From the IMG/VR virus record IMGVR_UViG_3300030331_003845, positions 1-57,336 of that record: 57,336 bases of DNA; one strand, written 5' to 3'. Positions 1,379 through 3,401 of this stretch are shown here, one piece after another. This stretch comes from a virus (lineage: Duplodnaviria; Caudoviricetes). Under the pieces are notes generated by a model that saw nothing but the letters and a program-made list of their open reading frames with translations, did not search any database and was not told where the DNA came from. A program made the position numbers and the translations under genes. Position 1 is the first letter of the stretch, and every line of letters begins with the position of its first letter.

Positions 1379-1568
1379 TTGTCCTGAAGCAGACTGGGAC
1401 TTGTGTACAAACATCAAACGACGTGGTTGGTTTGACAAACGACGACGAAGAACTCTGTCTGGCCAGTGCTGGTTAGTTGAGTATCCTTGATAATATAGTT
1501 GTAGGCTTCAACGACGACGGCGCAGAACTCTCCTGGCGCCAGCCCAGATGGGTTGATGAATTTGTTGT

Positions 1569-1595
1569 GTCGCCGTTGTTTGACACAACGACGAC
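1569..1595 (-). terminator. RNA hairpin just after the 1604-2050 gene
   Basis: Minus-strand GUCGUCGUUGU-GUCAA-ACAACGGCGAC, 11 bp including one G-U pair that forms only on the minus strand. No U-tract. Confidence 0.5.
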
Positions 1596-1603
1596 GGCAA
1601 CGA

Positions 1604-2050
1604 TTACCAACTACAAGTATATACGATTGTTTGTTTTCTTCTTATGGCTTCTTCGCACCACTCAATGAACTTCTTGTCTTGTCCCTTGTATTCATTGACT
1701 GCCTCTTCTTGAAACTGCTGACCCCAAAAGAATCCGTCATTACAAAAATAACGATAGTATTTATCTTTGTAAGCTTCCTTTAACTCTTTCAAGACATCTT
1801 CGGTGATATAAACCTCATCACCTGCGTTCATACCTAAGCAACTTAAATCCATTGGATCGGTTGGTGGCTTGTTGCGTTTCTTTGCTTCCCGTTCGTTCTG
1901 CTTTTGCCATTGTTGGTTCATAAATGTCTGCAGACGGGCGTGCTTTCTCCAGACGAACCCATCTTCTTTCGGATCGTAATCGTCAGAGTTATACACCTTT
2001 TCGAAGTTTATATCTTTGCCTCGAAGGTGTGCATATTGATCTAGTCCCAT
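1604..2050 (-). CDS. Conserved phage hypothetical protein (MGLDQY / WRKH family)
   Basis: 148 aa, AAGGAG SD. Motifs MGLDQY, WRKHARL, GFFWG and C-terminal YTCSW. Confidence 0.85.
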   Translation of the reverse strand: MGLDQYAHLRGKDINFEKVYNSDDYDPKEDGFVWRKHARLQTFMNQQWQKQNEREAKKRNKPPTDPMDLSCLGMNAGDEVYITEDVLKELKEAYKDKYYRYFCNDGFFWGQQFQEEAVNEYKGQDKKFIEWCEEAIRRKQTIVYTCSW

Positions 2051-2070
2051 AGTTCTCCTTTGTTATCTAT

Positions 2071-2099
2071 TGTCTTATCATATCCCATAAATAAGTCAA
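2071..2099 (-). promoter_or_regulatory. Early promoter P2 (TTGACT-16-TAAGAC)
   Basis: Near-consensus -35, ATGGGAT in the spacer, 14-mer shared with P1. Confidence 0.65.
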
Positions 2100-2212
2100 C
2101 TTAAAAAATTGATACCTGAGAAGAGCAAAACTATCAGAAGCAGTGCCAGCGCCCCAGTCAGTTGTGGAAACAACAACCACGCTATGATTGCCACGAAAAC
2201 GAGCGACATCAT
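2096..2212 (-). CDS. 38-aa hydrophobic membrane micropeptide (not in ORF track)
   Basis: MMSLVFVAIIAWLLFPQLTGALALLLIVLLFSGINFLS; ATGA-coupled to the upstream gene. Confidence 0.65.
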   Translation of the reverse strand: MMSLVFVAIIAWLLFPQLTGALALLLIVLLFSGINFLS

Positions 2213-2397
2213 ACGACCAGCTTCTCCTGGCCAGATGCTTTACCTAGCTGCCGGATCTTGACTCCTTGTTTCTCCCAAGGGCGAGAAATGATTCGTAGCT
2301 CGAGACGCAGGGCATGTAACTGCCCTGCAGATATATTATCTACCACCATGGTTATCCTCTTGTTACGAAGCTTCTTATGAATGTTTCCTTTAGGCAT
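2209..2397 (-). CDS. Small basic hypothetical protein (start moved to MPKGN)
   Basis: GGGAGG SD upstream of ATG 2397. Confidence 0.7.
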   Translation of the reverse strand: MPKGNIHKKLRNKRITMVVDNISAGQLHALRLELRIISRPWEKQGVKIRQLGKASGQEKLVV

Positions 2398-2686
2398 CGA
2401 GCACCTCCCTTGTAATGCCATCGTCACCTGTGCTGTAGTTGATAGGATCTTTGTAACTTAGATGGTCATCCAATAACGACGGCGCGTTAGCCAAGGTCCC
2501 GCTGCCGACCTTTTGGTCACCGCTGTGAATGCGTACCCACATCTTTTCTACGATGCTGCCTCGTTTGAAACGAACGTACACGTGATCACGGTCCTTAAGT
2601 TCCATCTCTTTGATTTTAAAATAAACTTTATCTCCGCAATCACCGCAGGAGTAAAGTATGTTATCGTCCTTTTTTTTCTTTGTCAT
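2390..2686 (-). CDS. DUF2314/YegJ-like small protein
   Basis: VEKMWVRI...GTLANAP motif; N-terminal CxxC. Confidence 0.6.
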   Translation of the reverse strand: MTKKKKDDNILYSCGDCGDKVYFKIKEMELKDRDHVYVRFKRGSIVEKMWVRIHSGDQKVGSGTLANAPSLLDDHLSYKDPINYSTGDDGITREVLDA

Positions 2687-2706
2687 AACCTTCCTTTGTT
2701 ACCTCC

Positions 2707-2735
2707 AACTTAGGACATGATGGGATAGCTGTCAA
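2707..2735 (-). promoter_or_regulatory. Early promoter P3 (TTGACA-17-TAAGTT)
   Basis: Perfect -35 with 17-bp spacer containing ATCCCAT. Confidence 0.7.
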
Positions 2736-2981
2736 CTAAAAAGCTCAGGATCTTCTCCTGGCAGCAGCTCTGGGATCTAGCTTAAAGAAATCAAGTAAAT
2801 TCTACCTTTCTGTACGAAACGAGCCATACAGCTTCTCCTGAAGCCAGATGGGAACTTCTTAAAAACAAGAAAACCCAATGCTTTTTGTAGAACGACAACG
2901 GCATCCTGAACCAGGCTGGTGCTGCCACCAGACGTAACCTTCGGATCCCTGTCCGTTGTCAACGAGAAACGAGAACGACAA

Positions 2982-3401
2982 CTAGGAACGAGAACGAGCT
3001 TCAAGGGTACGCTGCCTGGCCAGTGCCAGGAGCTGCCTCCGGAAGGATGGCCAATCGTACGGGAACGAGAACGACAACGACGGGACGAGGGAACGAGGAT
3101 CTGTAAACACGGACACCGGTCTGTATAGTTCTAAGCGTCTGTCCAAGAGGGTCTGATTGCAGATGATAACAACTCCACCATTCTTAATTCGTTTATTAAT
3201 CCAACTGATTTGCCATTTAGAAAGCCTCGGATACTTGACTTTGTCTGATTTCAATTCCATCCAAAATTCTATACCTTCAGCACAACAATTTAGATCAGGT
3301 ATACCATTAATTGTTTTAGATTCTATGCGAGTAAAATGTATATTTTTACAGTTCTTTTGAATCAATTGTGATAGTCTTGATTCACGCTTCTTGACTGCCA
3401 T
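2982..3401 (-). CDS. PD-(D/E)XK nuclease (VRR-NUC / Holliday junction resolvase-like)
   Basis: ESRL...TRIES...GIPDL...FWMELK...LSKWQISW...GG. Confidence 0.8.
   Translation of the reverse strand: MAVKKRESRLSQLIQKNCKNIHFTRIESKTINGIPDLNCCAEGIEFWMELKSDKVKYPRLSKWQISWINKRIKNGGVVIICNQTLLDRRLELYRPVSVFTDPRSLVPSLSFSFPYDWPSFRRQLLALARQRTLEARSRS

Follow-up and report, generated by a model that had tools for sequence, protein, structure and literature searches.

A polar hexamer array that follows a nuclease gene between terS and terL in a relative of Pelagibacter phage HTVC023P

What is the role of the short repeats, all pointing one way, that lie between the terminase genes terS and terL of the virus record IMGVR_UViG_3300030331_003845? 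The window analyzed here is the whole of that record, a linear stretch of 57,336 bp that is ~95% complete. In its region 1380–3100, a first-pass annotation had described about eight bipartite, strand-polar units written over coding sequence, and had proposed that they form a packaging (pac) site around which TerS wraps the DNA, or else directional signals by which ejection proteins bring the DNA into the cell. Our analysis places the core of this signal in an array of hexamers that starts inside the gene for a PD-(D/E)xK nuclease-like protein. This post-nuclease array is a real, polar, cis-acting DNA element, present once per genome, anchored on the nuclease gene and under purifying selection at the nucleotide level. 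It also marks the border between the conserved terS–nuclease block and a hypervariable island of gene cassettes.

The plus strand of the window carries 24 copies of AACGA[CG], and 17 of these fall within 1380–3100, which is 3% of the window, leaving 7 for the other 55.6 kb (binomial probability, 4e-21). On the minus strand there are 12 copies, with 1 inside the region. Among 1000 dinucleotide-preserving shuffles of 1380–3100, the motif occurred 1.09 times on average and at most 6 times, and no shuffle reached the observed 17. The signal is local, strand-polar and well above background, as had been described. Nearly all window genes, including all those of the array region, lie on the minus strand; read on this coding strand, the motif is CTCGTT or GTCGTT. 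Other words are concentrated in the region as well: all three window copies of CCAGATG (shuffle mean 0.09), all three of CTGGCCAG (shuffle mean 0.01) and 4 of the 13 of TCTCCTG (shuffle mean 0.18). The bipartite form held up less well. A strict pairing of AACGAS with TCCTG at 3–40 nt was seen at only four sites of the region (1510, 2198, 2818 and 2891), rather than about eight, and once outside it, at 40833. The dominant element of the signal is the hexamer. The pair of units earlier singled out for comparison, at 2197–2237 and 2817–2850, does share an exact 12-mer (CAGCTTCTCCTG, at 2218 and 2829). An exact search of viral contigs for the long form CATCTGG..CAGGAGAAGCTG returned 0 matches, so this half of the unit appears specific to the window's close kin. 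The contrast in base composition also stands: with a G+C content of 41–50%, versus ~30–38% elsewhere, the region is the most G+C-rich part of the window. An assembly artefact was ruled out, as the region is collinear, with 87–92% identity, in four contigs from other samples (L003–L006); one Logan contig covers 770–3662 with 2 differences.

The main array (Table 1) is the sole run of at least five hexamers (gaps ≤130 nt) in the 57-kb window, and the opposite strand has none. Hexamer doublets, too, occur in the window only here. The array starts 680 nt downstream of terS along the coding strand, in the second gene after terS, and its cluster starts are spaced by 99, 102 and 73 nt. In relatives, arrays comprise 9–13 hexamers in 3–5 clusters over 220–400 bp. 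Each cluster holds 2–5 direct hexamers at a step of 6 nt (111 cases) or 7 nt (85 cases), and frequently another hexamer group lies 13–21 nt away. Cluster starts lie 85–109 nt apart in 95 of 129 intervals, giving a period of ~95 nt, and between clades the intervening spacers are unalignable. Thus the unit spacing of 70–76 nt proposed earlier is right for certain neighbours (72, 77, 73 and 70 nt) but not for the family: these are the shorter units, found at the end of the main array and in a second array closer to terL. A consensus built from 80 aligned units of 29 representative arrays runs from the hexamer cluster through CACTGGCC, TCAGGA, GGAGCTGG and GCAGCGTA to the next cluster. Of 109 spacers, 47 contain GAGCTG and 38 contain CAGCGT, versus 2.3 and 1.0 expected, respectively; judged by their sequence, these spacer blocks are the second half of the bipartite signal. 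Within clades the units evolve as orthologues and are not homogenized. The array has a G+C content of 44–50%, versus about 35% for the genome.

Relatives were collected by a TerS search of viral contigs, and the best 80 of 311 related stretches were compared. Like the window, 55 of these 80 loci have a single run of five or more hexamers, which in every case lies on the coding strand. In the remainder, the stretch ends before the end of the nuclease gene, the nuclease is not within the stretch, or the locus belongs to a distant lineage. Where the nuclease gene and at least 300 nt beyond it are available, the array begins at the nuclease tail in every case (54 of 54 loci), so analogous polar arrays, whose absence would have refuted the first-pass reading, are present in all informative relatives. 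Over the 80 loci, 850 hexamers lie on the coding strand versus 179 on the other. A search with a 17-mer taken from the array retrieved at least 120 more viral loci, 108 of 120 with the nuclease upstream on the same strand; the other 12 are mostly short or cut, and three carry the motif at the position of the second array. In 596 Gb of prokaryote genomes, the same 17-mer gave 109 single matches in unrelated taxa and none in Pelagibacter; with ~70 expected by chance, there is no sign of a host site.

More distant phages show what happens to the repeats when the nuclease diverges. In the lineage of G001 and G003, the nuclease is 41–47% identical to that of the window, and its gene, ~6 kb away from terS, immediately precedes terL without intervening cassettes. 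G001 has three tandem CGTTGAC heptamers directly after the nuclease stop codon, ~170 nt before terL, and further copies inside the gene end; G003 has a variant repeat after its nuclease gene (CCGTTGAC/CCGTTGTC). The CGTTGAC heptamers share a CGTTG core with the GTCGTTG and CTCGTTG forms of the window. HTVC023P carries, at the position of the array (L001, 8600–8800, after the nuclease homologue gp25), three different repeats of ~60 nt preceded by a perfect 12-bp hairpin. As far as these sequences tell, the repeats follow the nuclease gene and change together with it.

The PHROG matches of the nuclease-like protein span residues 4–82 only. Its Pfam matches fall below cut-off (VRR_NUC, E 0.076), and among 22 homologues Hjc and VRR_NUC each match 5. 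Residues about 100–139 are encoded by unit 1 of the array, so the signal does overlap coding sequence. The resulting C-terminal tail had been called odd, but it is not: the peptide FTDPRxLxPRFSFSxPxxWP is conserved in all clades. Conservation extends to a lineage with no CTCGTT in the corresponding DNA, so the tail genuinely belongs to the protein and is no accident. Codon usage is another matter. The codons of PRFSFS are near-invariant (CCT 32/36, CGT 30/32, TTC 25/27, TCG 31/31, TTC 36/36 and TCG 36/36), while adjacent four- and six-fold sites in proline, threonine and leucine codons vary freely (entropy 1.4–1.8); arginines of the N-terminal domain use AGA or AGG. The open reading frame (ORF) ends after unit 1 in most clades (133–139 aa) and after unit 2 in one (164 aa). 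Units 2–4 of the window differ from those of L003–L006 by indels of 1–2 nt and have stops in all frames; because the indels between such close relatives are not multiples of three, these units are non-coding. A tandem coding protein repeat was therefore rejected, only unit 1 (unit 2 in one clade) being coding.

In the non-coding part, 526 of 596 hexamer columns are identical versus 1445 of 2131 other columns over 15 pairs of arrays, and 298 of 308 versus 1090 of 1188 over 8 pairs of equal length. Non-coding hexamers thus change about 2.5 times more slowly than spacers. In L004, an indel breaks a long hairpin (2894–2959) yet re-creates a hexamer. With hexamer codons nearly devoid of synonymous change and non-coding hexamers slower than spacers, selection acts on the nucleotides themselves, in agreement with the first-pass annotation.

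Along the minus strand, terS is followed by a 98-aa gene, the nuclease-like gene, small genes of 98, 72, 38 and 148 aa, genes of 109 and 83 aa, and terL. Homology between other clades and the window breaks at 2892–3066, inside the main array, and resumes at about 2050–2110. Downstream of the cassette genes there are smaller hexamer copies, reaching as far as the conserved block that precedes terL. The second array has CGTCGTCGTT-type hexamers at 1587, 1510, 1438 and 1417, the first of them within an 11-bp hairpin. It is kept in L004 with a 41-nt insertion, and absent or much shorter in L007–L028. One contig of metagenome run X1 skips it (joint 1370->1603), and the same run also holds the window form. 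At the equivalent position, L137, L144 and L159 have two hexamer clusters 92 nt apart. From their sequence and placement, the main and second arrays bracket the clade-variable stretch in direct orientation.

Promoter-like sites precede the small genes: that of the 98-aa cassette gene is given in Table 1, and others are at 2094–2099 (148-aa gene) and about 1298. A scan with consensus promoters did not list the sites at 2730–2735 and 2094–2099. The arrangement TTGAC..CCCAT/ATGGGA recurs before cassette genes in relatives and in HTVC023P, with a shared leader that ends in AACAAAGGAG. Since each small gene has its own promoter-like site, the island can be read as a string of independently promoted cassettes.

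Table 1. Coordinates of the arrays, their outlying units and the associated genes and signals
Feature	Position	Strand	Evidence or content
terL, truncated by contig end	3..464	-	PHROG 4758, E 2e-34
Second array, between 148-aa and 109-aa genes	1360..1603	-	three units, 72–79 nt apart
Unit over 72-aa ORF end, ribosome-binding site and 38-aa hydrophobic ORF start	2195..2238	-	one hexamer, 2198–2203
-35-like TTGACA, promoter-like site of 98-aa cassette gene	2730..2735	-	sequence
Partial unit, CCAGGAGAAG..TCCTG and T run	2745..2775	-	closes array just before promoter-like site; small hairpin, then T-rich tail
Partial unit, paralogue of 2195–2238	2815..2851	-	exact 12-mer in common
Main array	2818..3097	-	11 CTCGTT/GTCGTT hexamers, 4 clusters
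Main-array clusters	3064–3097 (inside nuclease ORF), 2961–2998, 2891–2896, 2818–2823	-	hexamer positions
PD-(D/E)xK nuclease-like gene, 139 aa	2982..3401	-	PHROG 2165, E 1e-13; PHROG 93 'endonuclease', E 5e-6
terS, 175 aa	3778..4305	-	PHROG 51, E 1e-5; Pfam Terminase_2, E 0.046, below cut-off

How might such an element work? We tentatively favour, as a possibility and short of a probable answer, that the array is a multi-site DNA–protein platform linked to the nuclease/packaging module. As double-stranded DNA, it would serve for the cooperative assembly of a sequence-specific protein from the packaging or recombination module, and the candidate reader would be the nuclease or a partner rather than TerS. 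The platform would mark where replicated concatemers are recognized or cut, either for the initiation of packaging or for recombination-dependent processing. As a by-product, the repeats would offer homology for cassette swapping and for duplication and loss of units. Several features suggest a double-stranded site: direct repeats of 6–7 bp, a cluster spacing that persists where spacers are unalignable, strands that fold equally well, no matching RNA family, a single occurrence per genome, attachment to one gene and selection at the nucleotide level. The nuclease or a partner seems a likelier reader than TerS because the array lies between terL and the nuclease, which resembles Holliday-junction resolvases (by weak Hjc and VRR_NUC matches), and because the motif changes with the nuclease.

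Several points weigh against such a platform. The binder is a candidate only, and no molecule ends showed in the contigs of runs X1, X10, X18 and X19 aligned to the window. All copies follow the direction of transcription, so their orientation is compatible with a role at the RNA level. The nuclease tail is kept even where the DNA lacks CTCGTT, so the conservation of unit 1 is partly protein-level. The pairs used for hexamer conservation are not all independent, and aligners favour matching repeats. The spacer blocks CACTGGCC, TCAGGA, GGAGCTGG and GCAGCGTA equal the unit-1 codons for HWP, FQD, REL and QQR, which fits units born by duplication of the gene end. Finally, a separate repeat upstream of terS, GGTGTCCC, appears to be a more canonical candidate for pac and TerS, or for the site of a late regulator, than the post-nuclease array.

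If the repeats acted in RNA, they could form a terminator, insulator or processing signal in 3′ untranslated regions, with CUCGUU clusters alternating with G+C-rich, hairpin-prone spacers; such a signal would separate the terS–nuclease transcript, and each cassette transcript, from the next promoter. Consistent with this, every copy has the orientation of transcription and falls between a stop codon and the promoter-like site that follows. The unit at 2760–2746 scores as an intrinsic terminator, in L025 a hexamer occupies the loop and tail of a clean hairpin after the 148-aa gene, and in some clades one unit contains a hairpin with a co-varying stem, whose loop is complementary to the family leader. 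We still find an RNA-level role doubtful. Minus-strand RNA folds of 1330–1610 and 2690–3110 are ordinary (z −1.52 and −1.45), and spacers fold no better sense than antisense (mean z −0.58 and −0.57). The loss of the 2894–2959 hairpin in L004, where the hexamer is kept, argues the same way, as does the presence of clean G+C hairpin terminators elsewhere in this phage, for example at 548–569 and 625–652. An identity as intrinsic terminators was rejected, as only 1 of ~8 units (2760–2746) fits a hairpin plus T run and the hairpins are not conserved. The clusters are pyrimidine-rich, but 78-nt windows tested as rut sites have C/G ratios of 1.2–1.6 with 16–22 G, and the array maximum of 1.6 compares with 95th and 99th percentiles of 1.5 and 2.0 for the window; for a Rho site, this ratio is only moderately raised. 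A search of bases 1–6000 against Rfam gave no match beyond one chance match (E 0.18) outside the region, and no tRNA was found. RNA contigs cover 770–1161 and 1680–2029 only. A rather unlikely account, in our view, is that the repeats have no dedicated function and are scars: a slippage-prone gene end would have spread by tandem duplication, unequal recombination and carriage along with cassettes, and then decayed. It would explain why spacer blocks are identical to unit-1 codons, why clade homology breaks inside the array (2892–3066) and why the unit at 2815–2851 is a partial copy of a gene junction. Units also vary in number and presence, as the absence of the second array from L007–L028, the 41-nt insertion in L004 and the contig joints attest. 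Decay, however, does not predict non-coding hexamers that change ~2.5 times more slowly than the surrounding DNA, frozen synonymous sites in unit 1, or clusters with ~95-nt spacing that persist across clades with unalignable spacers. Nor does it predict an array that holds 44–50% G+C in a ~35% genome, or units that are orthologous within clades and not homogenized.

That the array is pac, as the first-pass annotation proposed, read by a TerS ring around which about 95 bp would wrap per turn, we judge unlikely. This reading accounts for a repeated, clustered and polar motif that is unique in the genome and lies within the packaging module. The cluster geometry resembles that of P1 pac, and SPP1-type pac, read by the same weakly matched TerS family, holds sets of direct repeats (PMC4737164). 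The array is not, however, in or beside the small terminase gene. It is anchored on the nuclease gene, and follows it even where that gene is 6 kb from terS, as in G001. The motif switches from CTCGTT to CGTTGAC while the DNA-binding (helix-turn-helix) region of TerS is almost unchanged between the window and G001/G003, so over the three lineage types compared it does not co-vary with TerS, as would have been expected of its target. The GGTGTCCC repeat behaves differently. In the window, three copies with an 11–12-nt period lie at 4770–4806 (minus strand), within a 555-nt non-coding gap (4686–5239) directly upstream of the terS operon, before a 126-aa gene and terS; the arrangement is iteron-like. 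Most relatives, including the heptamer lineage, have 2 + 3 direct copies and 1 inverted copy 100–190 nt before terS; HTVC023P has a different TerS helix and, in their place, about six copies of another 9-mer. With its retention in both lineages and its position next to the terS operon, GGTGTCCC fits a TerS/pac site better. The hexamer clusters could also be sites for a regulator acting 60–300 nt upstream of the sigma-70-like cassette promoters, possibly with looping between the main and second arrays. Each promoter-like site of the island does have hexamers upstream, and the arrays bracket the island in direct orientation, but a place upstream of one gene is indistinguishable from the 3′ side of the previous gene, the repeats are still present in the lineage without cassettes, and the window offers no known regulator as candidate. 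We regard this as improbable. Equally remote, in our estimate, is a cassette-exchange device, in which the nuclease would be guided to hexamer clusters that bracket the hypervariable island, the main array after the nuclease gene and the second before the terL block, and breaks made during co-infection would let promoter-bearing cassettes be replaced. Such a device would be the counterpart, in a lytic phage, of an integron platform, using homologous repair instead of site-specific recombination.

A number of other identities were tried and rejected. Six-base palindromes are not enriched (17 arrays hold 78, versus 97 expected). An attP-like intasome site was rejected because the 57 window ORFs scanned include no integrase. 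An origin of the iteron type does not fit either, as the replication genes lie at 9781–18454, the gene in which the array starts is nuclease-like and the region is G+C-rich. A CRISPR array is excluded by the variable number and spacing of hexamers, by a first spacer that encodes the nuclease tail and by the absence of a cas gene among the 57 ORFs.

The platform reading can be set beside known systems of direct repeats. Lambda-type origin iterons lie inside the initiator gene, a replication gene, and are about 19 bp long, contiguous and next to an A+T-rich stretch. The array resembles them in that selection keeps its direct repeats and that these overlie a gene whose own product may be their reader; it differs in its 6–7-bp repeats, its clusters ~95 bp apart, its high G+C content and its place in the packaging module. 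Ribbon-helix-helix proteins bind contiguous arrays of heptads or hexads, as in plasmid partition or omega-type operators. These share with the array direct repeats of 6–7-bp period that are too close for one helix face and would be read cooperatively. Unlike in those systems, no ribbon-helix-helix protein was identified among the window proteins, and this is a lytic phage without partition genes. PeSLs (promoter plus stem-loop) are mobile regulatory cassettes at module borders of T4-type phages; like the array, they are short and conserved, lie between genes on either side of variable cassettes, and match the positions of recombination breakpoints. In the present phages, by contrast, conservation falls on a hexamer cluster rather than on a fold, and the element starts within a core gene.

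The nearest precedent appears to be the pac site of phage P1. As described in PMC10028697, it consists of two clusters of hexamer repeats (HEX4 and HEX3) inside the coding sequence of pacA. Like the array, it has directly repeated 6-bp clusters ~100 bp apart, overlies coding sequence, belongs to the packaging module and occurs once per genome. P1 pac has 7 hexamers in 161 bp, each with a Dam site, within a small-terminase-like gene, and a cut mapped between the clusters. In contrast, the array has 9–13 hexamers over 220–400 bp, begins in a nuclease gene, is mostly non-coding and lacks GATC. SPP1/SF6 pac (boxA, boxB, boxC) offers a further parallel. It, too, has sets of direct repeats in the packaging region, and the TerS of the window is a weak match to Terminase_2. 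SPP1 pac (PMC4737164) spans promoters and the start of terS, whereas the array lies 680 nt downstream of terS and the equivalent place holds GGTGTCCC.

Several outlying units and small ORFs deserve mention. The partial unit that closes the main array has its CCAGGAGAAG conserved in L003–L006. A mini-ORF behind the AGGAG-like block at 2815–2851 was rejected, as its ATG is not conserved in L003–L006. The corresponding block at 2230 is probably a real ribosome-binding site, serving the 38-aa ORF (2096–2212, minus strand), which starts at the stop codon of the 72-aa ORF and is kept in L003–L005. Similar peptides follow the homologous gene in L007–L009 and L024. Its hydrophobic sequence suggests that the product is probably a small membrane protein. 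Another small ORF (3681–3887, minus strand) overlaps the end of terS in a different frame and reaches across the gap to the next gene. ORFs of 51–53 aa occupy this position in relatives, with a common ..PK.SKLS..Q.. start. The window ORF has no Pfam match; its sequence suggests a small basic protein that may be a candidate DNA binder.

Folded and palindromic elements also occur around the arrays. In some relatives, though not in the window, a hairpin within the array has a loop that is the reverse complement of the family 5′ leader plus ribosome-binding site (L031 4385, L034 6457, L060 1908, L067 7440, L068 5933, L069 7448, L073 2118 and L082 1405). Its stems differ between clades and remain complementary; it may be an RNA element or an inverted copy of the leader. 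A perfect 15-bp palindrome of the TTAGAAT-N-ATTCTAA type, operator-like, lies upstream of the promoter-like site of the 148-/109-aa genes (L025, about 8720 and 8830; L043, about 8375; L137 and L144, about 1310). Between the 83-aa gene and terL, the G+C hairpins at 548–569 and 625–652 score as terminators for the minus and plus strands, respectively. Positions 583–750 have the highest coding-strand C/G ratio of the window, up to 4.2. At 5027–5054, on the nearly gene-free plus strand, a 12-bp hairpin followed by a T run resembles a terminator; L025 retains it with changed stem letters.

Judged by its sequence, the window is a nearly complete genome related to Pelagibacter phage HTVC023P. Its terL has 74% nucleotide identity to that of HTVC023P, the sole cultured-phage match to bases 1–6000. 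The far end of the contig carries genes for the portal, an HNH endonuclease, GroES and the major head protein, which follow terL in HTVC023P. As this end resumes the post-terL genes, the record corresponds to a circular permutation lacking roughly 1 kb. The contigs of G001, G003 and G005, all near-complete, have ends at unrelated positions, and the two ends of the G005 contig overlap by 159 nt, so that it closes on itself. TerL type was dropped as a guide to packaging mode: the nearest solved chains, 8dgc and 4bij ('DNA maturase B'), are too distant (E 5e-7, ATPase part only). The HNH endonuclease gene (53626–54162, minus strand; PHROG 5046, E 3e-23) adjoins the portal gene. HNH proteins encoded beside terminase or portal genes help DNA cutting in some cos phages, so by analogy this may be another nuclease to consider for packaging.

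As far as the literature on the group was searched, nothing is in print on the cis-acting signals of HTVC023P-type phages. The available text of PMC9599517, supplements aside, has no relevant passage on terminal repeats, hypervariable regions, promoters or intergenic DNA. The accessible text of a 2019 preprint on the group, again leaving out supplements, has none on repeats or termini; of the isolates, the same preprint states only that their genomes were assembled as circular contigs. A search for pelagiphage direct repeats together with terminase found one paper, which is unrelated. No bacteria are commoner in the surface ocean than SAR11, and HTVC023P-type phages rank with the most abundant viruses that infect them. 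The array is widespread among these phages (at least 120 viral contigs) and sits exactly at the island border where these phages differ most. In metagenomes, the nuclease tail plus hexamer array provides a simple marker by which the variable island can be recognized and aligned. The identity of its reader would reveal a signal for packaging or concatemer processing, a new type of insulator, or a mechanism by which accessory genes are shuffled.

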